From a bacterium (lineage in GTDB: Bacteria > JADJOY01): a stretch of 64,000 bases of DNA. Positions within the stretch are counted from its first letter, which is position 1. Every line of letters starts with the position of its first letter. The position numbers were made by a program, and so were the translations under genes. The notes under the pieces are model-generated. The model searched no databases. It was not told the DNA's origin and was given only the letters and a program-made list of their open reading frames with translations. This document shows positions 11,905-64,000 of this stretch, piece after piece. The DNA is taken from contig JAXLQJ010000033.1 in assembly GCA_046331705.1 (NCBI GenBank), forward strand, positions 1-64,000, read 5' to 3'.

Positions 11905-14169
11905 ATGAAGCGCGTCTGGAATCGAGCTCTCGAAGGCAAGACCACCGCGGTCGTCGGCACTGACGCCGGCTCGCCTCCGGAGGACTACCCGCTGGTGGTC
12001 GTGGCCGTGCGCTGCGACCTCCACGAGCAGCCGCTCGCACCGCTGCTCGAAGCGCGCGACGAGCTGGCGCGCTGGCTGGGCTGGGAGGGCGTCCTCGACG
12101 AGGCGCCGCGCCGCACCACCCAGGCGAGCCCGCGCTCGGGCTTGCTCGGCGATCGCGCGGAGCCGCGCCTCAACGATTGGATCCTCGCCACCTTTCGCGA
12201 GCTGGCGACGGAAGCGAGGGGGACCGTGGTGCTGCTCTTCGAGTCGGTCGATTTCGCCGACCCGGCGACCCTGGACGCGCTCCAGCGCATGGTGCTGCGG
12301 CGTGGCTGGCTGGGCGTGCCGCTGGTGCTGGCGTTCGCCGGTGAGCCGGAGGGCGAGGCCGCGGAGCTGTTGCGAGCGGTCGAGCAGGCGGAGGGCCCCG
12401 AGGGGATCGTGCGCTTCGAGATCGCTCCGGCGAGCGAGCCGCCCGAGGACGTCGCGATCCCCGACGTGCCGACCGACGTGATCCGGGCGTTGCGCGCCGC
12501 CGCCACGATCGGAGCCACCTTCGAGAGCCACCAGGTGGCCTCGCTGCTCGGCATCGACGGCGTCGAAGCGCTCGAGCTCTTCCAGCGCGCCCGCGATGCG
12601 GGCGTGCCGCTCGAAGATCGCGGCGACGGGCGCTTCCGCTGGCCACGGGCGTGGGTCGATGCGTTGCGCCAGAGCGTGCTGCCGTCGCTCGCCGCGGCCT
12701 GGCACCAGCGCTTGGCCGAGCTCATCGACGACGCGGACGAAGACCAGCTCGCCGCCCGCAAGCTGCGCGTCATCCCGCCGCCCACGTTCACGATCCGGCG
12801 CGCGGCGCCGAAGGCCGGCGTCGCGGAAGTCGAGGCGACCTCCAACCCGGAGGCTGCGCCAGCGGATCGCCGGGCACGCCCCCCCGCGCCGCTGCCGAAC
12901 GCGAGCACCGCGCCGGCGGAAGCGGCGCCACGCGCCGCGGGCACGCTGGTGCCGATCGAAGCCACCCCGCCCACGGCCGCCGAGATCGTGGCCGACGAGG
13001 AGGCGCTGAGCGCGTTCGTGGGCGAGCCCAAGCGGACGGCGCGAACGTCGCCCACCGACGCGCGCGCCGCGCGCCACCTCGCGGAAGCGGGCCGGCACGA
13101 CGCCGCCATCGAGCGCTACCTGGTCGCCGCCGAGGACGCCGCCGCGCGCGGCTCGAACCGGCTCGCGATCGATTACGGGCGCGAGGCGCTCAAGCTCCTC
13201 GGCAAGCTGCCGCTCACGACCCGGCGCCGCCGCCTGCGCATCGAGATCCTGGCGCGTCTCGGCAGGCTGCAATGGGAAGCGGCGGGGCCGGGCTCCGACT
13301 TCACGCTGGCGGAAGCGCTGCGCGCGCTCGAGGAAGCGCGCGCGTTGGTTCGCGAGGACGATCCCGTGCATCTCGCCGCTGGCGTGCGCGCGCTGATCGC
13401 GGGGGTTTGCTACGACCTCGGCGACCCGCCGTCGCTCGAACGCGCGTTGAGCGAGCTGACCGACGCGAGCCGCGAGCTGGCGGCTGCCGGCGACGCCCGC
13501 GGCGCGGCGCGGCTCTTCAACGATCAAGCGGCGGTGTGGGTGCGCATCGGCGATCCGGTACGCGCCAACCACCTCCTCGAGGAATCGCGCGGCGTGTTCG
13601 CGCGGCTCGCCGCCGACGACGCGGAGGCGCGCATCGAGCTCGCCGAGACCGACCACCTGATCGCGCGCTTGCCGCTGCACGTGCGGCCGCGCCCGGGACG
13701 CGCCGACGACGCCGTCGAGATGGGCCTGCGCCACGCCCGCGACGCCGAGCGGCGCTACCGCGAGCTCGGCGCCACTCGCGAGGTGGCGCGCGTGTGGGAG
13801 ACCATGGGGCGGCTCGAGCTGCACCGCGGCGCGAGCGCGGCCGCCGCCGAGCACCTCACCCGCGCCGTCGAGGTGCAGAGCGAGGTCGGCGACATGATCG
13901 GGCTGGCGCGCAGCTCGGCGGCCCTCGCGGAGGTGCTGGCGGCGGGCGGCCGCCTCGCCGACGCGATCGCGGTGCTCGGCGACTCGGTGGAGCTCAACAG
14001 TCAAAAGGGCAGCCCGCTCGGCCTCGCGTACAACCGCCGCGCCCTCGAGCGGTTCCAGAGCCGCCTCGATGCCACCACGCGCAACACGCTCGCCCCGGAG
14101 CTGACGCGGATCACGACCCAGCTCGCCGAGGCCGAGGCCTCGTTCGGACGCGTACACCTCGAGGACTGA
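11905..14169 (+). CDS. STAND/MalT-like ATPase-derived TPR protein lacking a Walker A motif
   Basis: [19 protein letters not shown] (degenerate Walker-B region), [17 protein letters not shown] winged-helix region, [20 protein letters not shown] followed by TPR-like repeats; in-frame TGA at 11899 and GGAGA RBS support this start. Confidence 0.65.
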
Positions 14170-18437: not shown

Positions 18438-19499
18438 ATGAGTCATCGCGTGATCCAGTGGGCGACCGGCAACGTCGGCAAGCTCGCCATCCAGGCCATC
18501 GCGCGCCATCCCGAGCTCGAGCTCGTGGGCGTGTGGGTGCACGACGAGGCGAAGGTCGGCCGCGATGCCGGTGAGATCGCCGGCATCGCATCGCTCGGCG
18601 TCGCCGCGACCAACGACGTCGACGCGCTGCTGGCCCTCGACGCCGACTGCGTCATGTACTGCCCGCTGCCGTGGCAGGTCGACGAGATGTGCCGCATCCT
18701 CGAGTCGCGGAAGAACGTCGTCACCACCTGCGGCTATCACCATCCCTACATCCAGTTCCCCGAGGCCACCGCGGAGCTCGAGCGCGCCTGCCAGCGTGGC
18801 GGTGTGTCGCTGCACAGCTCGGGCAGCAATCCCGGCGGCGTGAGCGAACGCTTTCCGCTCACGTTCAGCGGCTGGTGCAGCCGCATCGATCGGCTGGTGG
18901 TCACCGAGTACGGCGACTGCCGCCACTACGACACGCCGGGAATGATCTTCGAGGTGATGCTGTTCGGGAAGAGCGAGGCGGAGGCGCGCGCCGGCTTCAT
19001 GCTGGAGATCCTGAAGCGCTGCTTCTACGAGTCGCTCGACATGGTGGCCGCGGGGCTCGGCGTGCGGATCGATCGCTACGGGTTCACGCACGACGTGGCG
19101 CTGGCGAGCGAGCCCATCGAGACCGCTGCCGGCACCATCGCCGCCGGCACCGTCGCGGCACAGCGCTTCACGTACTCCGGCATCGTCGACGGTGGCCCGC
19201 ACCTCGAAACGCGCCAGGTGTGGGTGATGGACGATCTCCCGTTCACGCGCTTCGACCGGCCGTGGGAAGGCGATCGCCTGGACGGCTGGAACATCCACAT
19301 CGAGGGCGATCCGTCGTTCGACGTGAACATCGACTTCCCGGCCCACTACACCGGCCGGCAGCGCACTCGCGACGGCATGATGGCCACCGCCGTCCACTGC
19401 GTGAACGCGATCCCCGCCACCTGCCGCGCCGCGCCGGGGATCCGCACCTACCTCGATCTACCCCTGATCACCGCCTGCGCCGGCCGCGCCGGGCGGTGA
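18438..19499 (+). CDS. Dihydrodipicolinate-reductase-like NAD(P)H-dependent amine dehydrogenase family protein
   Basis: Start MSHRVIQWATGNVG after GGAGG; KVGRDAGE, SGSNPG, ATAVHCVNAIP..AAPGIRTYLDLP. Confidence 0.85.
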   Translation: MSHRVIQWATGNVGKLAIQAIARHPELELVGVWVHDEAKVGRDAGEIAGIASLGVAATNDVDALLALDADCVMYCPLPWQVDEMCRILESRKNVVTTCGYHHPYIQFPEATAELERACQRGGVSLHSSGSNPGGVSERFPLTFSGWCSRIDRLVVTEYGDCRHYDTPGMIFEVMLFGKSEAEARAGFMLEILKRCFYESLDMVAAGLGVRIDRYGFTHDVALASEPIETAAGTIAAGTVAAQRFTYSGIVDGGPHLETRQVWVMDDLPFTRFDRPWEGDRLDGWNIHIEGDPSFDVNIDFPAHYTGRQRTRDGMMATAVHCVNAIPATCRAAPGIRTYLDLPLITACAGRAGR

Positions 19500-19509
19500 G
19501 CAGGGCCGC

Positions 19510-22500
19510 TCACTCGCCGCCGGCGGACGCCGCCGCGAGCATCGCGTCGAACGCCGCGACCAGCGCGTGGGCATCCAGATCCGCGGGCAGCTTCTTGAGC
19601 TTCAGCAGCTTCGCGCGGCAGCGCGCGTCGAATCGGCGCTTGTGCTCGAGCACCGCCACGCTGCGTTCGTCGTTGACGTAGAAGGGGCAGTCCTTCGCGC
19701 CAGCGGCGTGCATCGGGTCGCGGGCGGTGGCGGTGTCGAAGATCTTGGCCGCGAGCGTCGACACCAGCTCGTTTCCGATCACCTGCTCCATCACGCGCCC
19801 GCGCCGCGGGATCTCGAACCCGGCGACCGAGAACACCATCACCCGTAGCGCTTCCTCGTGACTCCACCACGCGTACCAGTCGTACCCCGCCTTCTCGTCC
19901 ATGAGCCACTGGTCGGTGATGGCGACGAGGTAGTGCACGCCGATCTCGTCGGGCTTGGCCTGGAGCCGCGTGAGGAAGGCTTCGGCGTTCAGGTAGGCGC
20001 GGCCGTAGCGCTGCTTCTGGTTCCACACGCCGTACGGGGCGACCAGGTTGACGCGCTTGAGCTCGATCCGCTGCTGGGCGCGATTGAGGCGCTCGAGCAG
20101 CGCGTCGATGCCGATGAAGGAGCGCGTGAGGTCGGCGACGCCCACGCGCACACGCTCGACCGGGCGGCCGCGTGCCGCCGCGGGTGTCCCGGCGGCGCCC
20201 GGTCGCTCCGGTGCCGCGGTGGCCGCCGCCGCCGTTGGACGAGGCCTGCAGAGCCGATAGCTCGGGTCGCGTGCGTAGAGCACCGGAACGGCGGCGTCGA
20301 TGAGCTCCTCTTCCACCGAGTAGCCGAGCGCGATGCGCGACTCGCGCGCCGCTTCGCCGAGCGTCGCACCCGTCGCCAGCGCCCAGTAGAAGTGCTCGGC
20401 GAATGCCACGGCCGACGGATCCAGCACGGGGTATTGATTGGCCATCACCGCCGGAATGCCGGCGTGGACCAGGGCCTGCGCGACGCCGCGATTGAGCGTC
20501 CGGTGGCTGCCTTCCGCGGTATCGCAGGCATTCAGGAACACCAGTCGGATGCCGCGGCCGCTCAGGATCTCGCGTAGCTGCTGGATTCGGATCTCCTTCT
20601 TGATCCGGGCCTCGTTGACGAAGATGAGCGTCCCTTCGGCGGCCTTGCGGTCGAACTCGCCGTGGCCGATGAAGTGGACGATGTCGTAGCCGCGGCGCTC
20701 CTCGGCGTCGACGCCATCGCGCAGCGCGCGCGTGTCGCGGTGCTCGCGCACGGCGGCCTCGATCTTGCGGTGCAATCGGCCCGCGGTGACGTCGGTGAGG
20801 GTGTCGACGGTGACCAGCTTCGCGTCGATGAGTCGCCGAAAGCCCGCTTCGATCCGATCGCGCTCGTCTTCCGACGACAACGCCGGCGCGTCGAACGGCT
20901 GCGCGACCACGACGAGAATGCGAAGCGGATCGTGCGGGAGGATCGGCGTGAGCCGCTCGGCCGGAACCGCCGAGAGCACGTTTCGGACCAGGTGAACCTC
21001 TTCGGTCACCAGGAACTTCTTGCGATCGGGATCGAACGCCAGCTCCCACGGCAGCGTGGCCAGCCACGGCACCGCGGAGGTGAGCACGAGATTCAGCGGG
21101 CGTTCGCGTTGCTCCGAGCGTGCGATGTCGTAGAGCCGCTTCACGCCTCCCACGAAGAGGCTCTCGAAGAGATCGACTCCCACTGCGCGCAGCTCCTCGC
21201 GCGTGGGCGTGGGGGGAATTCGCTTGGTTCGCGAATCCGGCTGATTCGTGAGGATGAGCCGGATGCGCTTGTGCATGCCGATGATGCGGTGGAAGCGCGA
21301 GCCGGGCCCGTCCCGTTCGGCATCGTCCTTCGCCAAGGTCTCCGGATCACGCGTGGCGAAGGGATCGAGCGTGCGCGCGCCGTTGTACATGGCGAGGATG
21401 CGTGCGCCCGGCTGGCCGGCTCGGCGCGCCCTCGTGCTGTCTGGCGCTGCGCCGGCAGTGGGGTCGTCGAGGATCATGAGCTGGAGCACGTCGTCGCCAG
21501 AGAAGCGGCTGGGAAAGACGGCGGCGGCCAGCGGGGTCGCGTCGCGGTCGCCGAACGCGCCCGCCTGGCGCGCATCGTCGTGTGCGCGGGGCCGCGGCGC
21601 GCGGGGCTCGCGATCGAGCCCGAGCCCGCCGCGCCGCGCGATGCGCGTGGGCAGCGGCCGATCCGGATCGAGAAGCTCGATCGACGGCTGCTTGCCCGTG
21701 AGCGTGTCGGCGAGGAACTGAGCCGTGGCGTCGTGGCGGAAGAAGTCCACGTGGCTCACGGGCTCGTCGTTCCGCGACCTCAGATTGCCTCCGGGACCGA
21801 AACAGCCGATGCGCTGGGCGGGAATCGCGCTCGACGCGCCGTCGACCCGCCAGCCGCCTTGGGTGGGCACGACCAGGTCGTTGGCGCCGTCGAAGAACCG
21901 ATCGATGCCGGCGTCGAGGAGCCTCGAGAGCACTCCACTCGTGGGCTCGTAGCTCGAGCACAGCGCCGAGTAGGCCGAGAGCGGCGGTCCCGGCGGCGCC
22001 TCGAGCGCGTGCAACGTCGCGCTGTCGCGATCCATCACCGCGACGCCGCGCATCGCCGGGATCACGTTGGACGCGAGCCACACGATGCCGTTGGCGAGCA
22101 GCTCGGGCAGCGTGGTCCACGGGTTGTCCGGCAGCACCTCCAGCAGATTGGCGAGCAGCCCGAAGGTCTGCTCGTAGCGTCCCGGTGTGGCGAGCGGCGT
22201 GCCCGCGTTCGGCGACGCGACCAAGACCGCGCGGCCGAGCCGAAATCGCTCGGCCTTCGCGCCGAAGAGCTCCCGCCGCTCCACGGCGTGGCGCAGCACC
22301 AGGCCGCCGCGCGAGTGGGTGACGACGTCGAACTCGCGGCCGCTCTGCGGCAGCGCATCGAGCAGGTCGTGGACGTTCTCTTCCGGCTCGTCGCTGATGG
22401 TGTAGTGGTTGAACGCGAAGATCCGGTCGCCGTAGAGCGGCCGCACGGACTCGAAGAAACGCGTGCGGCCAAGGGCGTCGAACGCGCCGCGCGCATTCGA

Positions 22501-23142
22501 GAACGTGCCGTGGAGCAAGAGGAGCGAGCGCTGGCCGCCGCCGATCTCGCCTGGCGAGGTGCGCGTGAGCTCGAGCCCCTCGGACTTCACCGCCACGTGG
22601 TGCCAGCCCGTGCTCAGGTCGCGCGCTTTCCACAGCAACCGCTCGCCGCCCTTGGCGAGAAGCTCTCCCGCGACCCGCCGCGCGGCGTCGATGGCGGGCT
22701 CGGTGATCTTGACCACCAGGAACTTGAGCGCCGCCGACACGATGCCGCGCGACTGCCCCTCGGCCACCGGCGTCTGCACGCGAAATCGCAGGCTCGCTCC
22801 CGCGCCCCGCGCGACGCCGCGCGCGGTGCCTCGCGACGGGGACGACCCGAGCACCGGCGCGTGGAACGTGAGCGCGCCCGAGGGGTGGCGCACCGCGATC
22901 AGCGCGCTTTCGCCAGCCGCCGCGTCGACCGTGAGGTCCACGACCCGATCCGCGAGCCCACGCACTCGCGCGGCAGGCAGGACGTCGTGAACGGACTCGA
23001 CACTCACGCCGTCGAGCAAGAGCCCGGTGGGAAGCGCCGGGACACCCTCGCCGGCGCCGCGTCGCACGCGACCGGACGCCGCCGCGGCGCGGGGCGAGGT
23101 GGCGGTGGCGGTCCAGGCTTCGCCGTTGAGGATGCGCAGCAT
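19510..23142 (-). CDS. Alpha/beta-hydrolase + CHAT (caspase-fold) protease fusion with unknown C-terminal domain
   Basis: Hydrolase: LLLHGTFS, VVTHSRGG, VASPNAGTPLA, NDLVVP, SHVDFF. CHAT: LPWE, IVHFIGHG, VFLNACDT, GIPAVMANQY, FAEHFY. Start 23142 (ATG) or 23190 (GTG). Confidence 0.88.
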   Translation of the reverse strand: MLRILNGEAWTATATSPRAAAASGRVRRGAGEGVPALPTGLLLDGVSVESVHDVLPAARVRGLADRVVDLTVDAAAGESALIAVRHPSGALTFHAPVLGSSPSRGTARGVARGAGASLRFRVQTPVAEGQSRGIVSAALKFLVVKITEPAIDAARRVAGELLAKGGERLLWKARDLSTGWHHVAVKSEGLELTRTSPGEIGGGQRSLLLLHGTFSNARGAFDALGRTRFFESVRPLYGDRIFAFNHYTISDEPEENVHDLLDALPQSGREFDVVTHSRGGLVLRHAVERRELFGAKAERFRLGRAVLVASPNAGTPLATPGRYEQTFGLLANLLEVLPDNPWTTLPELLANGIVWLASNVIPAMRGVAVMDRDSATLHALEAPPGPPLSAYSALCSSYEPTSGVLSRLLDAGIDRFFDGANDLVVPTQGGWRVDGASSAIPAQRIGCFGPGGNLRSRNDEPVSHVDFFRHDATAQFLADTLTGKQPSIELLDPDRPLPTRIARRGGLGLDREPRAPRPRAHDDARQAGAFGDRDATPLAAAVFPSRFSGDDVLQLMILDDPTAGAAPDSTRARRAGQPGARILAMYNGARTLDPFATRDPETLAKDDAERDGPGSRFHRIIGMHKRIRLILTNQPDSRTKRIPPTPTREELRAVGVDLFESLFVGGVKRLYDIARSEQRERPLNLVLTSAVPWLATLPWELAFDPDRKKFLVTEEVHLVRNVLSAVPAERLTPILPHDPLRILVVVAQPFDAPALSSEDERDRIEAGFRRLIDAKLVTVDTLTDVTAGRLHRKIEAAVREHRDTRALRDGVDAEERRGYDIVHFIGHGEFDRKAAEGTLIFVNEARIKKEIRIQQLREILSGRGIRLVFLNACDTAEGSHRTLNRGVAQALVHAGIPAVMANQYPVLDPSAVAFAEHFYWALATGATLGEAARESRIALGYSVEEELIDAAVPVLYARDPSYRLCRPRPTAAAATAAPERPGAAGTPAAARGRPVERVRVGVADLTRSFIGIDALLERLNRAQQRIELKRVNLVAPYGVWNQKQRYGRAYLNAEAFLTRLQAKPDEIGVHYLVAITDQWLMDEKAGYDWYAWWSHEEALRVMVFSVAGFEIPRRGRVMEQVIGNELVSTLAAKIFDTATARDPMHAAGAKDCPFYVNDERSVAVLEHKRRFDARCRAKLLKLKKLPADLDAHALVAAFDAMLAAASAGGE

Positions 23143-23209
23143 CGATGGCTCCGTTCGGTGCTGCGGCCGCCGGCCCCGCGACCGAGTCACGGCGGAGAAA
23201 GGAACGCGG

Positions 23210-24013
23210 TCAGATGGCGAACGGCTGCTGCGCTTCGAACGTCGGGCTCCGGACGCCGGCGCGATAGTAGTTCGGGGTCTGATCCGGCGGCATGCGCGCC
23301 GCGATCTGATCGCGGAAGCGCTTGTAGCTCCCCTTGAACTTCCCGCTCTTCCACACCGCGCGCAGGTTCTCGGTGAAGAGCCCGTTGCGGTCTCCGTCGC
23401 GCGAGAGCTGGTTGTCCATGCAGCCCGAGATCAGCAACAGCGACGCCTTCACCTTGGCCTGCGCTGCCGGCGGGTTCGCCTTCTGAATGGCACGGTACGT
23501 TGCCTTGTGCGCGGCCTCCACCTTCGCGCCCACGTTGGGTGGCATGAACTTCACCCGTGGGCCGCCGGCTAGAAACGCCGGCATCCCCCGCACCACCGTG
23601 CCGCTGTGACAGCTATCGGAGAGCACGAAGATGCGGACCCCGGACTTGAATCGACCGAACGCGGCGAAGAGCTCGTCGTCCACGAGCTGGCGATCGAAGA
23701 GCACCCAGGTCTCGTCGCGACCGTCCTCGTCGTCGCCGTTGGTGTCGCGCACCTGACCGCCGTGGCCAGAATAGGTGAGCAGGAAGAGGTCGCCTTTCGC
23801 GAGCTTCTTCGCCGCCGCCCCGATGGCGGCGAGGACCGCCGTCGACGTCGCGTGCTCGGTCAGCAGCTTCTGGGTGGTGAAGCGGCGCTTCTTCGCGATC
23901 GCCTGCATGTCGTTCGCGTCGAGCTCGCAGGCGGTGAGCGTGCCGTCCCACCCTTCGTACTGGGCCGGATCCACTCGATTGAGACCGATGTGCAACGACA
24001 TACCCTTCGCCAT
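23210..24013 (-). CDS. Caspase-family (peptidase C14, metacaspase-like) protease
   Basis: SLHIGLN, TYSGHGGQ (catalytic His), LSDSCHSGT (catalytic Cys), ISGCMDNQLS, NGLFT, QTP; AGGAGG RBS. Confidence 0.93.
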   Translation of the reverse strand: MAKGMSLHIGLNRVDPAQYEGWDGTLTACELDANDMQAIAKKRRFTTQKLLTEHATSTAVLAAIGAAAKKLAKGDLFLLTYSGHGGQVRDTNGDDEDGRDETWVLFDRQLVDDELFAAFGRFKSGVRIFVLSDSCHSGTVVRGMPAFLAGGPRVKFMPPNVGAKVEAAHKATYRAIQKANPPAAQAKVKASLLLISGCMDNQLSRDGDRNGLFTENLRAVWKSGKFKGSYKRFRDQIAARMPPDQTPNYYRAGVRSPTFEAQQPFAI

Positions 24014-24210
24014 GGTGGCGCCTCCTGGTTCGCGCGATTCGTGGATATCGAAAGCTCGGGATCTCGAAACCACTTAGGCCAGCTCCTGGCCGGAGTCAAT
24101 TCACGGGACGTACGCGTGGAGCGCGACTCGGCCGCGCTCTCGACTCGCGGCCCGATTGCGAGCGATCCTCCTCGGCTCCGCCTCAGCTCGGCCCGAGGAC
24201 CTCGACACCC

Positions 24211-25794
24211 ATGAAGCTCGACCAAGAAGCCGCCCGCCGTCGCACCTTCGCGATCATCTCGCACCCGGACGCCGGCAAGACCACGCTCACCGAGAAGCTC
24301 CTGCTCTACGCCAACGCCATCGAGCTCGCGGGCTCGGTGCGGGCGCGGAACGCGCCGCGCCACGCCATCTCCGACTGGATGAAGATGGAGAAGGAGCGCG
24401 GCATCTCCGTCACGTCCTCGGTGCTGCAATTCGAGTACGACGGTCGCGCGCTCAATCTGCTGGACACGCCCGGTCACGCGGACTTCTCCGAGGACACCTT
24501 CCGCGTGCTCGCCGCCGTGGACTCGGCGGTGATGCTGATGGACCACGTGAAGGGTGTCGAGCCGCGCACCTTGAAGCTCTTCGAGGTGTGCCGGATGCGG
24601 CGTCTGCCGGTGGTCACGTTCATGAACAAGCTCGACCGCGAGGGCATGGAACCCTTCGAGCTCCTCGACGACGTGAGCACCAAGCTCGACCTGAAGGTGG
24701 CGCCGCTCACCTGGCCGATCGGCATGGGTCGCGACTTTCGCGGGGTGGTCGACATCCACTCACGCGAGGTCACCCTCTACGACGCGGCCCACCATGGCAG
24801 CCGCGTGCTCGCGGCCAAGCGCATGCCGTGGGCCGAGGCGGAGCCCTTCGTCGGCGAGACGCACTATCGCCGGGTGAGCGAGGAGCTCGAGCTCCTGCTT
24901 CACGCCGGCGAGGCCTACACCACCGAGGGCTTTCTCGGCGGCGAGGTGAGCCCGGTTTTCTGGGGCTCCGCGGTCACCAACTTCGGCGTCGATCGCTTGC
25001 TGTCGTTCGTCTCCGAGCACGCCGCGGCGCCCGGTCCGCGCGCCACCGAGGATGGCGAGACCATCGCGCCCGACGACCAGCGCATGAGCGGATTCGTGTT
25101 CAAGATCCAGGCGAACATGAACCCCAAGCACCGCGACCGCATCGCCTTCGTGCGGATCGTGAGCGGGCACTTCGAGCGCGGCATGGACGTGACCGTCGGG
25201 CGCTCGGGCGAGACGCTCCGGCTCTCGAAGCCGCACAGCTTCCTCGCCGACGAGCGTTCGATCGTGGACGAGGCGTGGCCCGGCGACATCGTGGGCGTCT
25301 TCGATCCCGGCAAGCTGCGGGTCGGCGACACCATCGCCGAAGGCCGCCGCATCCGCTTCGGCGAGATCCCGAGCTTCGCGCCCGAGCACATCGCGCGGCT
25401 CTCCATCAAGACCTCGATGAAGCGCAAGGCGCTCGACGCGGGCCTCGATCAGCTCAGCCAGGAAGGCGTGATCCAGCTCTTCTTCAAGAGCCGCGAGGAC
25501 CGCCGCAGCCCGATCCTGGGCGCCGTCGGTTTGCTGCAGTTCGAGGTGCTGAAGGAACGGCTCAAGAACGAATACGACGTCGACGCGCAGATCGAGCTCC
25601 TGCCCGGACGGCTGGCGCGGTGGGTGAGCGGCAGCCCCGCGGCGCTCGCCTGGCTCGAGGATCGCTCCGACAACTACACGATGCTCGAGGACCGCCACGG
25701 CCACCCCGTGGTGCTGGTCAACTCGCCCTTCCACCTCGACTACGCCCGCCGCAACGCCCCCACGATCGAGCTCCACGAGATCGAGCCGAAGTAG
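24211..25794 (+). CDS. prfC: Peptide chain release factor 3
   Basis: RRRTFAIISHPDAGKTT, ERGISVTSS, DTPGHADFSEDT, NKLDR, FKIQANMNPKHRDRIAF, GAVGLLQFEV. Confidence 0.97.
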   Translation: MKLDQEAARRRTFAIISHPDAGKTTLTEKLLLYANAIELAGSVRARNAPRHAISDWMKMEKERGISVTSSVLQFEYDGRALNLLDTPGHADFSEDTFRVLAAVDSAVMLMDHVKGVEPRTLKLFEVCRMRRLPVVTFMNKLDREGMEPFELLDDVSTKLDLKVAPLTWPIGMGRDFRGVVDIHSREVTLYDAAHHGSRVLAAKRMPWAEAEPFVGETHYRRVSEELELLLHAGEAYTTEGFLGGEVSPVFWGSAVTNFGVDRLLSFVSEHAAAPGPRATEDGETIAPDDQRMSGFVFKIQANMNPKHRDRIAFVRIVSGHFERGMDVTVGRSGETLRLSKPHSFLADERSIVDEAWPGDIVGVFDPGKLRVGDTIAEGRRIRFGEIPSFAPEHIARLSIKTSMKRKALDAGLDQLSQEGVIQLFFKSREDRRSPILGAVGLLQFEVLKERLKNEYDVDAQIELLPGRLARWVSGSPAALAWLEDRSDNYTMLEDRHGHPVVLVNSPFHLDYARRNAPTIELHEIEPK

Positions 25795-30418: not shown

Positions 30419-31960
30419 ATGCCGGAGGCCCTGCGCGATCCCACGGCGGCGCTCGCCGAGCGCTATCGCGCCGTCTTCGATTACGCGCCCGATCCGGCGC
30501 TCCTGGTGCGCGCCGACGACGGGCGCATCCTCGACGTCAACCTGGCGTTCGAGACGCTGATCGGCTGGGCACGACGCGAGCTGCTCGAGCGCTCGCTCGC
30601 CGAGCTGATCGCCGCGTCGACGCCGGCCGAGCAGCGCGGCGCCTTCGCCGCTGCGCTCGCGTCCGACGCTCCGGTGCGCATCGACGCGGTCGCGTTCGCC
30701 CGCCGCGACGGCGCGGCGCTCACCGTGGACGTGGACGTCAACCCGGTGAAGGCGCGCGGCGACCGCTTGTGCCACGTGATCGCGCGCGACCTGGAGCGCG
30801 AGCGCCGCCTGCGCGAGCAGATGATCCAGTCCGAGAAGCTCGCGTCGCTCGGCCAGCTCGTGTCCGGATTCGCCCACGAGGTGAACAACCCGCTCACCGG
30901 CATCCTCGGCTACGCGGAGCTGCTGCTGGATCGCGGCGCCGAGCTGCCCGCCGAGCTGCGCGCCGACGTGGAGCGGATCTTCAACGGCGCGCAACGCACC
31001 CACCAGATCATCTCCAACTTGCTCAAGTTCGCGCGCGCCGAATCTCCCACCGCCACACCCATCGACGTCCACGCGCTGCTCGACGAGTGCTTGACCCTCA
31101 AGGAATACGCGTTTCGCGTGAGCGACATCATGGTGCGGCGCGACTTCCAGCAGAGCCTGCCCACGCTCACGGGCAGCGCGCAGCGGCTCCGACAGGCGTT
31201 CCTCAACATCATCGAGAACGCCCACGAGGCGATGGTCGCGCAGCGCGGCGGCGGCACCATCGTGGTGCGCACCCACGCGATCGCGGGGGACCAGATCGAG
31301 ATCGAGTTCCTCGACGACGGCCCCGGGCTCGCCGAGCCGCACCGGGTGTTCGATCCCTTCTACACGACCAAGGGCGTGGGCAAGGGCACGGGCCTCGGGC
31401 TCTCGGTGAGCTACGGCATCGTGCGCGATCACGGCGGCGAGATCGTCGCCGAGAACCGCCCCGGCGGCGGCGCGCGCGTGGCCGTGCGTCTGCCGGTGAC
31501 ACCCACGGTGGCGACCGTTCCCCGGCCGGTCACGCAGCCCGTGCAGCACGGCGACAACCTCGGCCGCGGCGAGCGCGTGCTGGTGGTGGACGACGAGGAC
31601 ATCGTGCTCGCCGTCACCGAGAAGGTGCTGCGCGAAGCGAACTACAAGGTCACCGTCGCGCGCAGCGGTCACCAAGCGGTGCTGAAGCTGCGCGACGAGT
31701 CGTTCGATCTGGTGGTCACCGACGTGCGCATGCCGCGTCCCGTGGACGGCATCGATCTCTACCACTGGATCCGCGCCAATCGCGCCGGTTTCGAGGGGCG
31801 CGTGGTGTTCATGACCGGTGACACGTTGCGCGAGGTGACTCGCAGCTTCCTCGAGAGCGTCCCCAATCTGCGTCTCGCCAAGCCCTACAGCCCGGAAGAG
31901 CTGCGCAGCACCGTGCGGCACGCGCTCGACGCCAATCCGGTGCCCGGAATGCGGCCCTGA
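30419..31960 (+). CDS. PAS-domain hybrid sensor histidine kinase/response regulator
   Basis: QSEKLASLGQLVSGFAHEVNNPL, NIIENA, DDGPG, FDPFYTTK, GTGLGL, receiver VVDDE/TDVRMP/KPY. Confidence 0.95.
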   Translation: MPEALRDPTAALAERYRAVFDYAPDPALLVRADDGRILDVNLAFETLIGWARRELLERSLAELIAASTPAEQRGAFAAALASDAPVRIDAVAFARRDGAALTVDVDVNPVKARGDRLCHVIARDLERERRLREQMIQSEKLASLGQLVSGFAHEVNNPLTGILGYAELLLDRGAELPAELRADVERIFNGAQRTHQIISNLLKFARAESPTATPIDVHALLDECLTLKEYAFRVSDIMVRRDFQQSLPTLTGSAQRLRQAFLNIIENAHEAMVAQRGGGTIVVRTHAIAGDQIEIEFLDDGPGLAEPHRVFDPFYTTKGVGKGTGLGLSVSYGIVRDHGGEIVAENRPGGGARVAVRLPVTPTVATVPRPVTQPVQHGDNLGRGERVLVVDDEDIVLAVTEKVLREANYKVTVARSGHQAVLKLRDESFDLVVTDVRMPRPVDGIDLYHWIRANRAGFEGRVVFMTGDTLREVTRSFLESVPNLRLAKPYSPEELRSTVRHALDANPVPGMRP

Positions 31961-34026
31961 ACCCCGCCGGACCTCGCCGCTCGCGTGCGCGCCTCGGGTG
32001 GGCGTGCGCCGCCGCGAGCCTGGCGCTGGCGGCGGCCTGCGGGGACGGCGGCGCTCGTTCCGCCAGCGGCGCGCGCACCACCGCCGTCACGTCGTTCGCT
32101 GCCGACGCGAGCTTCTACGACTCGCCCTTCCCGTCCGACCACCGGCGTGACGACGGCGGCCGTCCGCGCCTCGACGGCTTCCCCAACCCCGACGGGGTCG
32201 CCTTGGTCGACGACGTGCTCGCGCTCGCCGAGCGCGAGTCGGATGGCTTCAGCGTGACCACGGGTGCGTTCTTCCGCTTCACGGCGGCCCTCGACCCCGA
32301 GAGCCTGCCGCGCGCGCCCCTCGACACCCTGGCGGGCACGGCACCGGTCTTCCTGATCGACGTCGACCCCACGTCGCCGGAGCGCGGCCGCCGATTTCCG
32401 CTCCATGCGGGGTTCCAAGCAGACGCCGGCCCATTCGGCGCGACCAACCTGCTGGTGCTGCTGCCGCTGCAGGGCATCCCGCTCGCCGAGGGCACGCGCT
32501 ACGCCGCGGGTGTCACGCGCGCCGTGCGCGATGCCGCGGGACGGCCGCTGGCGAGCTCGCCCGAGATGCAGGCGCTGCTTCGCGGCAAGCGGCCCGCCAG
32601 CATGGGCGACGGCGTCTTCGCGGAATACCGCGACGCGCTCGCGACGCTCGACGAGCTTGGCATCGGCGCCGACGCGCTCGCGGCGCTCACGGTGTTCACC
32701 ACCGGCCATCCCATGCGCCGCATGCGCGCGCTCGCCGAGCGCATGGAAAACATCGCGCTGCCCGCGCCGGTGACGCCATGGGAGCGGACCGACGTCTTCG
32801 ACGATTTCTGCGTGCTGGCGGCGCGCATCGACATGCCGATCTTCCAGCGCGGCGATCCGCCGTTCTTCTCGGGGGGCGGCGACATCGTTTTCGACGCAGC
32901 CGGCGCGCCGGTGCAGCAAGGCACCGAACCGTCGCGATTGGTGGTCACGCTGCCACGAAAAACCGAGCCGGCGGCCGGATTCCCGGCGATGGTGTTCATC
33001 CGCACCGGCGGCGGCGGCGATCGGCCGCTGGTGGATCGCGGACGCGAGCCGAGCCACGGCGCGGGCGCGCTCGAGCCTGGCGAAGGCCCCGCGCGCTACT
33101 TCGCTCGTGCGGGCTTCGCCGCGATCAGCTTCGACGGCCCGCACGGCGGGCTGCGCAACGTCTCGGGCATCGACGAGCAGCTCACCGTCTACAACTTCCT
33201 CAACCCGTCGGCGCTGCGCGACAACGTCCTCGAGACCGCTGCCGAGGCGGTGCTGATGGGGCGACTGCTGGCCTCGCTCTCGTGGCCGGCCGCGACGTGC
33301 CCGGCGCTCGACGCGAGCGCCACCGGCGACGACACGGTGCGCATCGACGCGAGCCGCATGGGCATCATGGGGCACTCGATCGGCGGCACGGTGGCGCCGC
33401 TGGCGCTCGCCACCTCGGCGCGGCTGCGCGCGGCGGTGCTGAGCGGCGAAGGCGGCAGCTACCTCGAGAACCTGCTCTTCAAGGAGAGCCCCGTTCCCGT
33501 GAAGCCCATCGCCACCGCGATCCTGCGCTACGGGCAGCACGGGATCGAGCTGAGCCGCGCCGATCCCTTCCTGTCGATCCTGCAATGGGCGGCGGAGCCC
33601 GCCGATCCGCCCAGCTACGGACGCGCGCTGATCGGCGCGCCCATCGCGGGTGCCTCGCGCCACATCCTGATGTTCCAGGGCATTCGCGACACGTACATCA
33701 CGCCCACCATCGCCAACGCGAGCACCGGCTCGTTCGGCCTCGACCTGGGCGGCGCCGCGCTCGACACCAGCGTCAACGACGTGTTGGTGGCGAGTGGCGG
33801 CGAACGGATCGAGCTACCCGCGGCCGGCAATCTTCGCGGCAGCGCCGGCGAAGCCGTCACCGGCGTGGTCGTGCAACATCCCGAGGACGGCCTCGAGGAC
33901 GGCCACGAGATCGCGTTCCAGCGCGACGAGCCGAAACGCCAATACCAATGCTTCCTCGCCACCTTCGCCGCCGACCAGCCGCCGCTCGTCACCACCGGCA
34001 GCGCCGACGCGCCGTGCGCGCCGTAG
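31957..34026 (+). CDS. Alpha/beta-hydrolase (lipase-like) lipoprotein, probable CTG start
   Basis: Frame open upstream of the 32203 TTG: LNPAGPRRSRARLGWACAAASLALAAA-C lipobox (Cys 32038), FYDSPFPSD, DGFS; nucleophile GHSIGG; DGHEIAF. Confidence 0.8.
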   Translation: MNPAGPRRSRARLGWACAAASLALAAACGDGGARSASGARTTAVTSFAADASFYDSPFPSDHRRDDGGRPRLDGFPNPDGVALVDDVLALAERESDGFSVTTGAFFRFTAALDPESLPRAPLDTLAGTAPVFLIDVDPTSPERGRRFPLHAGFQADAGPFGATNLLVLLPLQGIPLAEGTRYAAGVTRAVRDAAGRPLASSPEMQALLRGKRPASMGDGVFAEYRDALATLDELGIGADALAALTVFTTGHPMRRMRALAERMENIALPAPVTPWERTDVFDDFCVLAARIDMPIFQRGDPPFFSGGGDIVFDAAGAPVQQGTEPSRLVVTLPRKTEPAAGFPAMVFIRTGGGGDRPLVDRGREPSHGAGALEPGEGPARYFARAGFAAISFDGPHGGLRNVSGIDEQLTVYNFLNPSALRDNVLETAAEAVLMGRLLASLSWPAATCPALDASATGDDTVRIDASRMGIMGHSIGGTVAPLALATSARLRAAVLSGEGGSYLENLLFKESPVPVKPIATAILRYGQHGIELSRADPFLSILQWAAEPADPPSYGRALIGAPIAGASRHILMFQGIRDTYITPTIANASTGSFGLDLGGAALDTSVNDVLVASGGERIELPAAGNLRGSAGEAVTGVVVQHPEDGLEDGHEIAFQRDEPKRQYQCFLATFAADQPPLVTTGSADAPCAP

Positions 34027-49363: not shown

Positions 49364-49396
49364 CCCGCCGCCGGCGACGGCCACGAAGTGGGTCCG

Positions 49397-51355
49397 ATGG
49401 CGGCACGCCTCGCGCTCACCCAGCCCAGGTGCGCGGACGTGAGCGCGCCGCGCGCGCTCGGCGAGCGTGCGATCGACGCGCTCACCCGGATCTTCCCGTG
49501 CCGCTCGGCGCTCTACTCGATCGTCATCGGCCTCGTGCTCGCGGCGGGGCTGCCGATCGCGAGCAACCCGTTCGTCGACCAAGCGCTGCCAGGGCTCGCC
49601 AGCGGACTGCTGTGGGGGCCGGGAAGCGCCCCCGCGTTGATGCTCTGGGGTCCGCTGGGACTCGGATGCGCGGGCGGCACGATCCTGGTGCTCGGCATTC
49701 GCGTCGTGGCGCGCGCGCTTGCGGCTTGCGCCGCACGAATCCGCCGAACGAGCGGGCGCACCGAGAGCGAGGCTCCACCGAGTCCCGCCGCGGGCGAGCC
49801 AGGCGAGGCGCTCGTCGCCCGCATCGCCGCGGCCTCGCCCGCTCGACGGCGCGCGCTGGCGTTGGCGCTCGCCGCCGGCTGGATCGCCTTCAGCGTGCTC
49901 GCGATGCGCCGCGCGCTCTTCACCGCGGTGGCCGCGATGGCGCTCGCGAGCGTGTGGCTCGACGTGTGGGGATCGCTGCGAGCGCGTCGTTCGATTCCGG
50001 TGCTTCGTCTCGGCTGGCTCGGTCGGCTGTGGTGGGCGCCGTTCGTGCTCGCCACCTGGTACGGCGTCTTCGGGCTGGTCCTCACCGCCCTCGCGATCCA
50101 GCCGGGCCCGATGGCGCTCGCCGTCGAGTGCGCGCTGGCCACGGCGTTCGCGCTGGGCGTCGCGCTGCGGCGGCGCTGGGGCGCGCACGGACTCGCGCTC
50201 GCCGCTGGCGCAGGCGCGATCGTCGCCGCGGCGTCGCTGCGCTTCGTCCCGGCGCCGGTGGCCGGCGTCGCCGAGCTCCCACCCGCGGCCAGCTGGCTCG
50301 CCTGGGCAGCGGGTCTCGTCGCCTGGGTCGGGGCAGCGCAGCGCGACCGCCGTGTCGGCGGGGGCGCCGATGGTAAGGGGGGCGGCGAGCTGCGCGCGCT
50401 CGGCGCGCTCGCACCCCTCACGGCGATGCTGGTTTGCGCGGGATTCCAGATCGAGCGCGGCCGCGGCGTGGACACCGCCGAGACACGCAAGCTCAGCGAC
50501 GTCACCGCGATCTACGATCTGCGCTTCGAGCCGGAGACGCGCCGCCTCTACTTCTCGAGCCGGGGCGAGGAGGCCACGCTCGGCTGGATCGAGGTCGACA
50601 CGCGCGAGACCCGCGTGCTGCCCGCGGGCGCGTTCGAGAATCCGCAGCGCCTCGCGATCTCCCGCGCCGCGCACGCGCTCGTGGTCAGCAGCCCGCGCGG
50701 CGCCATTCGCCTCGACCTCGACGACTTCGCGGATCTGCGGCAGCTCGAGCGCCACTCGAGCGTCGACGTCGCGGTCGCGAACGGCCGCACCGCCATCCTC
50801 GCCGGCGAGCAGAACCGCACGGTGCGGACGCTCGATCTGGTCTCGGGCGAGCAGCGCGCGTTCACGCTCCCCGGCCTCTACCGCTGGCCGTACTCGCTGC
50901 TGTGGAGCGCCGAGCTCGATCGGCTCTTCGTCGCCGACTGGATGGCGAGCCCGTGGCTGAGCGCGGTCCGGCTCGACGGCACGCCGATCGCCACCCGCTG
51001 GGTCGGCTTCATGAATGCCGGCACCTGTGTGCTTCCGGGGCGCAACGCGCTGCTGGTGGCGCGCATGTTCAGCCGCCGCGTCGACGAGCTCGACGCGCAG
51101 ACCCTCGAGCGGCGCGGCTCGATCCCCGTGGGCTTCGGCGTGCGCGAGATCGATTGCGATCCCGCGCGCGGCTGGCTGGTGGCGCTGGACCATTTCCGCG
51201 GCGTGCTGTCGGTGCTCGATCTGACCAGCCACCGCACGCTCGCGACCACGCGCATCGCCTCGGGCGCCCGAGCGGTGGCGTACGACGCCTCCACCCGTAC
51301 GGTCTACGCCGGCTCGCGCTCCGGGATCTTCGTGTGGCCGCTGGCGCTCGACTGA
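49397..51355 (+). CDS. Polytopic membrane protein fused to C-terminal YncE-like beta-propeller
   Basis: Many TM segments in the N-terminal ~350 aa; C-terminal RLYFS, RLFVAD, IPVG..VREI..D, TRTVYAG propeller blades. Confidence 0.7.
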   Translation: MAARLALTQPRCADVSAPRALGERAIDALTRIFPCRSALYSIVIGLVLAAGLPIASNPFVDQALPGLASGLLWGPGSAPALMLWGPLGLGCAGGTILVLGIRVVARALAACAARIRRTSGRTESEAPPSPAAGEPGEALVARIAAASPARRRALALALAAGWIAFSVLAMRRALFTAVAAMALASVWLDVWGSLRARRSIPVLRLGWLGRLWWAPFVLATWYGVFGLVLTALAIQPGPMALAVECALATAFALGVALRRRWGAHGLALAAGAGAIVAAASLRFVPAPVAGVAELPPAASWLAWAAGLVAWVGAAQRDRRVGGGADGKGGGELRALGALAPLTAMLVCAGFQIERGRGVDTAETRKLSDVTAIYDLRFEPETRRLYFSSRGEEATLGWIEVDTRETRVLPAGAFENPQRLAISRAAHALVVSSPRGAIRLDLDDFADLRQLERHSSVDVAVANGRTAILAGEQNRTVRTLDLVSGEQRAFTLPGLYRWPYSLLWSAELDRLFVADWMASPWLSAVRLDGTPIATRWVGFMNAGTCVLPGRNALLVARMFSRRVDELDAQTLERRGSIPVGFGVREIDCDPARGWLVALDHFRGVLSVLDLTSHRTLATTRIASGARAVAYDASTRTVYAGSRSGIFVWPLALD

Positions 51356-56979: not shown

Positions 56980-57131
56980 CGACACGCCCGCGGTCCTGAA
57001 CTGACATCCCCACGGATTCCCGTCCGGCATTAGGACGCTCGACCCGTTCGGGAAAACTGTCTAGAGTCCACATATCCAAATGTGCCCTCGACTTGCAGGC
57101 GTCCGGCTGCGCCTCGAGTAGTTCTCGGCCT

Positions 57132-60332: not shown

Positions 60333-60344
60333 CCGAGACCTCCC

Positions 60345-63300: not shown

Positions 63301-63967
63301 CGTTGTCCTATCCGCCTTCCACGCCAACGAGGGTGCAACTGGCGTTCGGCGGCTGTATCTCGAAGAAATGGGCCTACGCTGCTGCTACTCGTTTGAGAAC
63401 CGGCGGAAACTCTTCGAGATCGACTCGCGGTTCAAGTTTGCGATCATCCTTGCATCGCGAACGGGACCGACCCTCGAGTTCCCATGCGCATTCTACCTTC
63501 ATGACGACGAGTGGCTCTTCCAACCGAGGGCAGCGATCCGATACAGCTTGGCGTTCGTACGTCGCACTGGCGGACCTCACTTGAGCATCATTGAACTTCG
63601 CTGCCGAATGGATCAGATGATTGCGAATCAAATGCATCAATGCGCACAATCGTTTGTCGGCGTTACGAGCCGGCTGGGTGTGCGGCTTCAAAAGAGTCCT
63701 GCCGCTCTGGACATATCCAAGTACAGCCGACGCTTTGAAGAGGCTCCACGGCATACTCATAAGCATGAGCATCCCGTCCGTGGATCTGCCCTCCTGGAAG
63801 ATTGGTGGTACACGAAGGCAAGACATTTCGCGATTTCGGACGACAGATGGGGATCACATCCTCGCTATTTGCTTCCATTAGCAAAGGCGAACGACTTGCC
63901 GCTTCACGTGGAGCGAGCATGTGACTATCAAATTGCAATTAAAGAAAAATTTCTGCTCAACAAATGA
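60345..63967 (+). pseudogene. Large type IIG/Eco57I-like (DrmMI-like) N6-adenine DNA methyltransferase, multiply frameshifted in this sequence
   Basis: Motifs in correct order across three frames: [36 protein letters not shown] (61921), [12 protein letters not shown] (62035), [13 protein letters not shown] (62355), GFDVVLGNPPW (~62965), FENRRKLFEID; frameshifts may be sequencing errors. Confidence 0.8.
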
Positions 63968-64000
63968 GCGCACAATCATCGCATCCCTTATGCCTCCTGG

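Follow-up and report, generated by a model that had tools for sequence, protein, structure and literature searches.

A metacaspase gene beside a hydrolase-CHAT gene with an archaemetzincin-like tail: a possible protease-gated zymogen locus in bacteria

Using a 64,000-nucleotide (nt) stretch of bacterial DNA (positions 1 to 64,000 of contig JAXLQJ010000033.1, assembly GCA_046331705.1; hereafter, the window), we analysed two genes located on the minus strand between positions 19510 and 24013, one for a metacaspase and the other for a large multidomain protein that carries a hydrolase and a CHAT protease on one polypeptide. An initial annotation, made from the letters of the DNA alone, had placed two co-oriented genes here and listed the motifs SGHG, DSCHSG, THSRGG, NDLVV, SHVDFF, HFIGHG and LNAC. 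Both open reading frames (ORFs) were confirmed on the minus strand, where the codon-position guanine plus cytosine (G+C) content also marks two genes (the overall G+C of the window is ~70%), and all of these motifs are present. The metacaspase gene (23210..24013) reads from an ATG at 24013 to a stop codon at 23210-23212 and encodes 267 amino acids (aa); direct reading of the sequence places a Shine-Dalgarno-like AGGAGG at 24021..24026, 7 nt 5' of this ATG. A spacer of 67 nt (23143..23209) separates the metacaspase stop from the likely ATG of the large gene at 23142, which is preceded at 8 nt by GGAG. The large gene (19510..23142) encodes a protein of 1210 aa. An alternative in-frame GTG lies upstream at 23190; the protein atlas entry begins at the residue encoded by ATG 23142. 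The residue numbers of the large protein used here (P0001) are counted from the upstream GTG, so that the likely start is residue 17 and the protein comprises residues 17-1226 followed by the stop. The pair is operon-like, as had been proposed, with the gap of 67 nt here and gaps of 13-67 nt in five related loci. Neither a promoter-like nor a terminator-like site was found in the spacer; a scan of 19300-24400 detected no promoter-like sites, its two terminator-like sites are on the strand opposite to the genes and match the chance rate, and an Rfam search of the window gave no match. Hydropathy bears out the claimed lack of signal peptides: neither protein has a signal-peptide-like start or a membrane segment, and the top 19-residue Kyte-Doolittle means are 1.43 and 1.19.

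The large protein consists of five parts, namely an N-terminal region, a DUF7379 hydrolase, a linker, a CHAT protease and a C-terminal domain (CTD). The three catalytic modules with intact residues that the initial annotation had recognised in the two genes are supported by Pfam matches and by catalytic residues that are invariant in relatives; the conserved N-terminal (residues 17-215) and C-terminal (residues 1014-1226) regions had been overlooked. Conservation in the large protein was read from an alignment of 21 full-length homologues that are 42-72% identical. The alpha/beta-hydrolase (21676..22545, residues 216-505), made up of DUF7379 and its C-terminal part, matches PF24096 at residues 223-396 (4e-37, 128.3 bits versus a cut-off of 33). 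Invariant residues include an oxyanion-type HGTFS at 227-231, the nucleophile Ser293 of HSRGG (22312-22314), Asp438 of NDLVVP (21877-21879) and His480 (21751-21753), and the catalytic residues are also invariant in a larger set of 46 sequences. In an AlphaFold2 model of the N-terminal half, the hydrolase core has a predicted local distance difference test (pLDDT) score of 87-96. Foldseek matched this half to generic alpha/beta-hydrolases (E ~1e-5), with the bacterial lipases 5H6B, 4LIP and 1YS1 among the best matches, and weak Pfam echoes across the 46 members were to Palm_thioest (43/46), Abhydrolase_6 (4), PGAP1 (3) and Lipase_2 (1). A PDB sequence search with the N-terminal half returned nothing beyond PlaB phospholipase at E 0.56, which was treated as noise.

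The CHAT protease (20245..21414, residues 593-982, including a helical N-terminal part) matches PF12770 at residues 694-955 (1e-31, 110.7 bits versus a cut-off of 24). Its catalytic His843 (20662-20664) and Cys889 (20524-20526) are invariant in the 21 homologues, and the CHAT profile matches PDB 8TL0 (E 5e-7), a "CHAT domain-containing protein" of 496 aa whose HFIGHG and LNAC motifs align with it. The Arg/Pro/Ala-rich linkers described earlier were retained after measurement of their composition; both fall in gap-rich, variable alignment columns. Linker 1 (21415..21675, residues 506-592) begins with PLPxRRxxRG, here PLPTRIARRGG with R520-G521 at 21628-21633, and continues as a variable Ala/Arg/Asp/Pro-rich stretch; L513, P514, R516 and R520 are conserved in at least 90% of the homologues, the composition is 17% Ala, 16% Arg and 11% Pro, and pLDDT is below 50. 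Linker 2 (20152..20244, residues 983-1013) is Ala/Arg/Pro-rich (32% Ala, 18% Arg and 18% Pro over residues 981-1014) and contains R1007-G1008 at 20167-20172.

The CTD (19513..20151, residues 1014-1226) gave no Pfam match at E up to 10, including Peptidase_M54, and no PDB sequence match, and in the protein atlas it falls in unnamed clusters only, the nearest named one being "DUF6775 putative metallopeptidase" (0.78). Sequence methods gave no family; its domain class was resolved by the fold search only. An AlphaFold2 model built with an alignment (pLDDT 94.8, predicted template-modelling score 0.91) matched the archaemetzincins 2X7M, 3LMC, 3ZVS and 4AXQ in Foldseek (E 3e-6 to 8e-5, probability 1.00, template-modelling score 0.52-0.72), with other metzincins far behind. 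Archaemetzincins have the signature HEXXHXXGXXHCX4CXMX17CXXC (AmzA, MEROPS M54; Graef et al. 2012, PMC3427221). The CTD lacks the first and third His, the Glu and the second Cys of this signature, and keeps a relic HxxGxxxC (H1161-x2-G-x3-C1168) and a distal C1191; at the distal Cys the motif is CxxC in 8 of 38 sequences and mostly DxxC in the others. H[ED]xxH occurs in none of the 38 CTD sequences, and since all of them lack HExxH, the idea of the CTD as a third active peptidase was rejected. Judging by the modelled fold, the CTD descends from an archaemetzincin-like peptidase, and its sequence indicates that it is almost certainly catalytically inactive. Searched against 1.84 billion representatives, a profile of the 38 CTDs found only 483 proteins (E <= 1e-3); CHAT lies N-terminal to the CTD in 37 of the 46 matches that were scanned (of intermediate or short length), and the other nine are short or have no Pfam match, many of them being fragment-like. 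A regulatory or ligand-binding role of the CTD is suggested by analogy, because its position equals that of TPR-S in one class of relatives (class B, below) and that of SAVED or TPR in CHAT proteases that have been studied.

The beta-rich N-terminal region (22546..23142, residues 17-215) has no family in Pfam or the protein atlas and carries four conserved [R/S/T]-R-G motifs followed by a long helix: (i) R44-G45 (23056-23061); (ii) R77-G78 (22957-22962); (iii) R120...G129 (22804-22833), a triple SRG-TARG-VARG at residues 119-129; and (iv) R148-G149 (22744-22749). Residues R101, S104, G105, A106, F109, H110 and R148 are invariant among the 21 aligned homologues, and the four aligned positions read RRG in class A proteins (the type of the window) and [S/T]RG in class B. 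The model of the N-terminal half (mean pLDDT 74.8) gives this region about eight strands, a 26-residue helix and a hairpin; Foldseek matches of this half were dominated by the hydrolase and provided no named fold class for the beta-rich region. Motifs i, iii and iv, between beta strands, and the linker 1 motif lie in segments with pLDDT below 50, i.e., four of the five motifs covered by the model, and motif ii lies in a loop of moderate confidence. We compared RRG counts in 28 class A proteins to shuffled expectations. The N-terminal region has 67 RRG versus 5.1 expected, linker 1 has 9 versus 1.1 and linker 2 has 6 versus 1.4, whereas no enrichment was found in the hydrolase (1 versus 3.0) or the CTD (2 versus 1.8). 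Similar strings occur in unrelated proteins of related loci: GRRGGPRR stands just before the catalytic domain of the astacin-like metzincin of class C proteins and in stand-alone metzincins encoded beside class A genes; TRR[S/G]G-like strings are present in a second group of stand-alone astacin-like proteins; and of seven GDSL-like proteins whose genes lie downstream of class C genes, four have LPxRRRG in their N-terminal extension. The R-G motifs may thus be candidate cleave-to-activate sites.

The small gene encodes a protein that matches Peptidase_C14 (PF00656, 2e-19, 70.5 bits versus a cut-off of 21.4), aligns over its full length with PDB 3BIJ (GSU0716) at E 2e-88, and begins directly at the p20 part with no prodomain. 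A profile of this protein aligns with the eukaryotic metacaspases Yca1, AtMC4, AtMC9 and TbMCA2 (E 1e-35 to 1e-23). Invariant in 20 sequences are the catalytic His84 (23762-23764) and Cys135 (23609-23611), together with D90, D97, D100, E101, D200, D206 and R142, the last of which follows just after the catalytic Cys. The p10-like part contains ISGCMDNQLSRD with the invariant D200 and D206; an SGCxDxQxSxD-type motif is what we take to be the mark of the acidic S1 pocket in p10. These sequence features make the small gene product a bacterial type I metacaspase of the GSU0716 type without a prodomain, and its membership in this family predicts specificity for Arg/Lys. GSU0716 itself has been classed with the bacterial type I metacaspases, having p20 and p10 but no prodomain, and a proposal exists that the type I metacaspases of eukaryotes descend from its family (Choi and Berges 2013, PMC3734836). 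Members are numerous and much alike, the best 120 matches having 62-100% identity and lengths of 265-306 aa. Longer forms (120 listed, P0384-P0503; also L074 4930-6840) are often fused to cell-envelope modules, with fusions to PG_binding domains (PG_binding_1/3), an M15 peptidase (Peptidase_M15_3), GH19, a GDSL lipase and an M6 peptidase (Peptidase_M6); in most forms of 510-800 aa the extension has no Pfam match. A GDSL-caspase fusion on a Rhizobium plasmid adjoins trypsin-like and C1 peptidases.

A word-indexed protein search gave 803 homologues of the large protein, the best 120 of which all have PF24096 plus PF12770 and a length of ~1090-1340 aa; where named, these 120 come from Planctomycetota, Bacteroidota, Acidobacteriota and Verrucomicrobiota. 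A scan of 185,579 species, each represented by a single genome, produced 323 candidate stretches, of which 296 encode a relative; the locus counts given below refer to the 72 loci that were kept, in which gene calls are simple ORF picks. Based on tblastn, BLASTP and Pfam, with some short contigs classed from their visible part, we define the following three classes: (i) class A (37 loci, the type of the window), with the N-terminal region, DUF7379, CHAT and the CTD; (ii) class B (20 loci), in which the N-terminal half is the same, CHAT is divergent and a TPR-S "sensor" repeat takes the place of the CTD; (iii) class C (15 loci), in which an astacin-like metzincin (HExxHxxGxxH, Met-turn) replaces the N-terminal half and is followed by CHAT and the CTD. 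Other variants include P0295 (WD40, DUF7379, CHAT and the CTD), a 966-aa protein of Ruegeria pomeroyi DSS-3 that is encoded on a plasmid, aligns to residues 68-981 and has no CTD, and a 1767-aa plasmid-encoded protein of Paracoccus with two stretches that match DUF7379. The architecture of the family is therefore [variable effector]-[CHAT]-[variable tail]. This modularity, in which the effector may be DUF7379, an astacin-like domain or WD40 plus DUF7379 and the tail may be the CTD, TPR-S or none with an adjoining SIR2_2+AAA_21 gene, is typical of sensor-protease-effector proteins.

Several features of these loci were noted in passing. On the R. pomeroyi megaplasmid (NC_006569.1, SPO_RS20450 to SPO_RS20460; L076 7380-14184), genes for a 986-aa SIR2_2+AAA_21/AAA_15 ATPase and a 297-aa hypothetical protein follow that of the relative, and an IS5 transposase lies just upstream. 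Class B multi-peptidase clusters (L006 2100-5835, L014 2-5217, L035 129-5955, L042 2-5807) contain one or two caspases, a conserved ~345-aa protein without a Pfam match and a clostripain(C11)-CHAT fusion, with a trypsin-Endonuclease_NS fusion in L006 and a GH19 enzyme in L014; they are reminiscent of the peptidase-NucA clusters that Kaur et al. (2020, PMC7159879) call "System 3". The neighbours of class C genes are conserved (L041 2757-12123 and L063 3677-13461; also L051, L053, L055, L060 and L070): a GDSL/SGNH-like protein with a GDSW motif is encoded downstream in 7 of 15 loci and Amidase_2 upstream in 4 of 15, in addition to an uncharacterised protein of 880-1010 aa and a metallo-beta-lactamase-fold protein. 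In three loci the large gene is split between frames (L011 5905-8684, L048 5977-9446, L050 6040-9376), which points either to pseudogenes with frameshifts or to errors of assembly.

An effector under protease control would fit this architecture, in which conserved R-G motifs lie in predicted flexible loops and in both linkers. It is possible, at somewhat less than an even chance, that the locus encodes a zymogen module that acts in the cytoplasm, is gated by proteolysis and belongs with systems of bacterial conflict or programmed cell death, in which the metacaspase would be an optional second tier. The CHAT cysteine protease would be the switch, the inactivated archaemetzincin-like CTD would be its regulatory or ligand-sensing (peptide-binding) tail, and the N-terminal half would be a latent lipase-like hydrolase that is restrained by the beta-rich pro-region and tethered by the disordered linker. 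A trigger, phage or other, would be sensed via the tail or through oligomerisation; CHAT would then cut after Arg at the [R/S/T]-R-G loops and the PLPxRRxxRG linker, in cis or between copies; and the hydrolase, freed or activated, would attack membrane lipids. The upstream metacaspase, predicted to be Arg/Lys-specific, might serve as a second-tier protease in the lineage of the window: either CHAT would activate it at the conserved basic inter-subunit linker (R142, GGPRxR), with broad protein degradation as the result, or the metacaspase would help to cut the same R-G sites. Action of CHAT on the caspase has an experimental precedent in SAVED-CHAT and PCaspase (Steens et al., below). The reverse direction between CHAT and metacaspase is equally possible, because a bacterial caspase-like protease has been found to be strictly Arg-specific (Rousset et al., 10.1101/2024.10.24.620036). 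Consistent with a conflict module are the metacaspase fusions to envelope-directed modules and the location of two relatives (L021, L027) near defence genes. The proposal also draws on the intact active sites of all three enzymes, on the second peptidase genes at related loci and on caspase linkage being limited to loci with the hydrolase half.

The linkage between the two genes was then compared across the 72 loci. By tblastn, a caspase gene occurs within 6 kb in 15 of them (class A, 7/37; class B, 8/20; class C, 0/15), which rules out the caspase as an obligate partner and sets aside the idea of a constant one. Among class A loci, L001, L002, L003, L007 and L011 have it immediately upstream and co-oriented, at a distance of 13-67 nt; one gene intervenes in L058, and L044 has a 709-aa fusion downstream. 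In class B the caspases occur in several arrangements, often with the 345-aa protein. All linked loci have the hydrolase half (15/57 versus 0/15 loci without it; Fisher p = 0.03, with no phylogenetic correction). A quick maximum-likelihood search with 46 N-terminal halves placed the linked class A loci on deep, poorly resolved branches; the window and L001 group with a support of 100, and other class A clades have no linked member. A second peptidase gene of some kind lies beside 16 of 37 class A loci: a metacaspase in 7, an astacin-like protein in 5, eCIS_core in 2 (assigned in L025 by cluster membership only), clostripain C11 in 1 and CHAT-TPR in 1. If the two genes were functionally independent, with adjacency a lineage-specific accident and the large protein acting alone, a caspase at only 15 of 72 loci would be expected; plasmid-borne caspases are likewise found alone or with other partners, none of three such loci that were inspected contains a relative of the large protein, and none of the 120 longer caspase forms listed is a caspase-DUF7379 fusion. 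We nevertheless hold independence to be decidedly improbable. The same-strand, tight spacing is kept in relatives of different phyla that are only 43-69% identical (Pirellulaceae, Verrucomicrobiota, Flavobacteriales), caspases recur beside class B genes in other arrangements, a single caspase+CHAT fusion (P0386) is present among those longer forms, and when the labels on the tree were shuffled 500 times, only one shuffle was as clustered as the actual distribution of caspases.

The genes that flank the pair are unrelated to it, in agreement with the initial annotation, and have housekeeping functions. On the 3' side lies a convergent gene for a DapB-like dehydrogenase that ends at 19499, followed by those for a YNCE beta-propeller lipoprotein, an MFS transporter, a DUF1499 protein and an alcohol dehydrogenase; on the other side are a divergent prfC (RF3) and then glycosyltransferases. 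The stops of the large gene and the DapB-like gene are only 10 nt apart (19499-19510), with no terminator-like hairpin between them. The remainder of the window is ordinary chromosome, and this locus is not a defence island. Elsewhere in the window, G+C falls from ~70% to 62% toward the end (57000-64000), which may be the edge of a different, perhaps acquired, region; a 1110-aa SNF2/ResIII-type helicase is encoded at 57000-60332 on the plus strand. Pfam gives little or nothing for three large ORFs at 11905-14169, 31822-34026 and 49364-51355 (754, 734 and 663 aa). A sub-threshold TPR_12 match is all that the first of them has, and the region in which it lies (12001-14000) has a G+C of 75.6%.

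The neighbours of 16 class A loci, 127 ORFs in all, were compared with PADLOC models; there is no background rate for these matches. Strong matches were to a type I restriction enzyme and PDC-M24B (L021), Avs2 and a pVip-like (viperin-like) protein (L027), PDC-S11 (L007), PDC-M36A/B (L040), an IetA-like protein (L033) and a mad3-like protein (L031); some matches were generic, such as a kinase in L002 and a sigma factor in L034. The pair itself matched generic cores of CHAT and caspase, and no system-specific model. The BovA (Borvo) match (7e-11) spans model positions 546-662 of 711, i.e., the CHAT core only and not the full length; the SAVED_CHAT match is limited to the CHAT core as well (model positions 124-255 of 498), and the "caspase" model matched the metacaspase weakly (8e-7). 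A special case of the zymogen module, in which the trigger is a phage, would be dedicated anti-phage abortive infection, in line with the initial annotation: once infection is sensed, the caspase or CHAT would release a toxic lipase, and the cell would die before phage release. Analogy with experimental precedents for CHAT and caspase-like proteases in defence speaks for it, as do the relatives within 6 kb of strong PADLOC matches (L021, L027, L007, L040, L033) and the SIR2_2+AAA_21 ATPase gene that follows the R. pomeroyi relative. We rate it as somewhat unlikely, given that the flanks of the window and L001 are housekeeping genes, that about half of the 16 scanned loci have no strong defence match (again with no background rate), that no phage or mobile-element genes adjoin the operon, and that the PADLOC matches to both proteins are partial and confined to the core.

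The same chromosomal housekeeping context, common to the window and L001, would suit non-lethal regulatory proteolysis or envelope remodelling during development or stress, in the manner of cyanobacterial HetF, with the hydrolase as a lipid or acyl-protein esterase tuned by proteolysis. The spread of the family across many free-living soil and water phyla is compatible with such a role, and so are two weak echoes, one to HetF in NCBIfam (3e-7, far below the cut-off) and a consistent one to Palm_thioest, in 43 of the 46 members. However, partner peptidases are swapped between loci and lytic enzymes (Amidase_2, GH19, a trypsin-endonuclease fusion) cluster with the relatives, so that the ensemble looks like a conflict system and not like a conserved pathway; the spread is also patchy, with 296 matches among 185,579 species genomes. 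Regulatory proteolysis is, in our assessment, quite unlikely.

Another partner set may be present upstream of the class A gene of L033 (550-5890), where an IetA-like AAA ATPase, a 948-aa protein and a 370-aa eCIS_core (DUF4157-type) protein are encoded; an eCIS_core protein of the same cluster is encoded in L025 (3-683). The eCIS_core gene directly upstream in L033, its counterpart in L025 and the envelope-degrading enzymes among the neighbours of relatives would be expected if the large protein were an exported or injected antagonistic toxin, of the polymorphic-toxin kind or as cargo of an extracellular contractile injection system (eCIS), with CHAT as a self-releasing peptidase and the hydrolase delivered to competitors. 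This explanation is very improbable: no signal peptide or membrane segment is present, no secretion-system, Rhs/PAAR or immunity-like small gene lies beside the operon in the window, and the effector is at the N-terminus rather than at the C-terminus.

Returning to the cytoplasmic zymogen module, it should be noted that a number of observations weigh against it. Caspases are absent within 6 kb of 30 of 37 class A and 12 of 20 class B loci and are therefore not essential to the mechanism of the family; their distribution on the tree needs at least five gains or losses, and the caspase family is common without a large-protein partner (on plasmids, 21 records have the caspase and 3 have the hydrolase, searched with a 320-aa part, and there is no overlap). 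The window and its closest relative, L001, lie between housekeeping genes; in L001, which shares the synteny of the window, none of the seven neighbour ORFs scanned has a PADLOC match, its caspase apart, and PADLOC and NCBIfam provide no system-specific model for the pair. RRG is also in excess in the CHAT region (20 versus 6.4 expected), where 12 of the 20 fall at a single alignment position within the fold, so that an RRG is not in itself diagnostic; binding or regulation would be an alternative role for the R-G loops. Arg cleavage is not universal among CHAT proteases. The segment around the catalytic Asp438 has a pLDDT of only 36-52, and since the fold matches are generic as well, "lipase" is only the nearest guess. 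A sensing role of the tail is suggested only by its position and its lost catalytic residues.

A bolder form of the zymogen proposal, which we find doubtful as a whole, is a widespread and hitherto undescribed family of single-polypeptide "death switches". CHAT, sensing through the pseudo-archaemetzincin, would activate its own lipase-like zymogen at four R-G loops and fire a second-tier protease (the metacaspase here; elsewhere a metzincin, clostripain or DUF4157), ending in lysis of the membrane or envelope; the R-G tag would be a portable cleave-to-activate address of unrelated effectors, and the whole would be a counterpart of initiator and executioner caspases. If the zymogen reading is true, the family is an example of a lytic effector in bacteria under the control of a proteolytic cascade that is compact and simple in its genetics. 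New elements would be a pseudo-metalloprotease as the regulatory tail of a caspase-fold protease, an Arg-Gly "activation tag" common to a lipase-like hydrolase, metzincins and GDSL-type hydrolases, and interchangeable second-tier proteases; DUF7379 and the GSU0716/3BIJ metacaspase family would gain a function. Ruegeria pomeroyi DSS-3, Bradyrhizobium and Horticoccus provide cultured entry points to the family.

In the literature searched, we found no paper on DUF7379 and no description of this architecture; the DUF7379-CHAT-CTD family, the pseudo-archaemetzincin tail, the shared R-G loops and the interchangeable second peptidase were not found in print. The earlier statement that the pair is not a named system thus stands as far as names go, but the pairing of an alpha/beta-hydrolase with a caspase had already been noted by Kaur, Burroughs, Iyer and Aravind (2020, PMC7159879). 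In the VMAP (MoxR-vWA) ternary conflict systems described there, a caspase-superfamily peptidase is consistently paired with an alpha/beta-hydrolase, and proteolytic cascades, in multi-peptidase clusters with a NucA endonuclease, are proposed as thresholding devices. The window resembles these systems in having such a pair, at the level of the alpha/beta-hydrolase fold, and differs in that no MoxR, vWA or VMAP component lies in its flanks and its hydrolase is fused to CHAT.

The SAVED-CHAT of Haliangium ochraceum, from a type III-B CRISPR hybrid with a cyclic oligonucleotide-based antiphage signalling system (CBASS), cleaves and activates PCaspase, which cuts many proteins (Steens et al., 10.1101/2023.06.23.546230). 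As in that system, a CHAT gene is encoded in the window with a second caspase-fold protease gene. However, the window has no SAVED domain and no cyclase or CRISPR genes in its flanks; its CHAT shares one polypeptide with a hydrolase, an R-G-loop region and a pseudo-metzincin tail, and its caspase is a GSU0716-type metacaspase. The 8TL0 chain matched by our CHAT profile is probably this SAVED-CHAT, as suggested by its length and a constant 20-residue numbering offset. The metacaspase of the window is a close full-length homologue of GSU0716 (3BIJ), with the same p20 and p10 and no prodomain; that family has been described only from sequence and a structural-genomics entry, and we found no report of a partner or function for it. 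In type IV Thoeris, the activated caspase-like protease of a TIR-caspase pair cuts many proteins strictly with Arg at P1 (Rousset et al.) and might, by analogy, serve as a model for the metacaspase or for an Arg-directed CHAT at the R-G sites. It differs in that Thoeris is activated by a small molecule, not by a protease, and in that no TIR gene is among the neighbours in the window.

The likeness to archaemetzincins (M54) lies in the fold of the CTD and the HxxGxxxC relic, whereas the failed signature indicates that the CTD is probably not a peptidase. Craspase is the complex of Cas7-11 with the TPR-CHAT protein Csx29, which cleaves Csx30, and bacterial gasdermins are cut by neighbouring caspase-like proteases. 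In both cases a sensor-controlled CHAT or caspase-like protease frees a latent toxic effector (partly after PMC9729208), as may happen here. The differences are that no Cas7-11, Csx30 or gasdermin was present among the neighbours scanned and that the putative effector of the window is fused in cis. CHAT-to-caspase cascades, sensor-CHAT proteases that free latent effectors, the pairing of a hydrolase with a caspase, and the structure of GSU0716 are already known.

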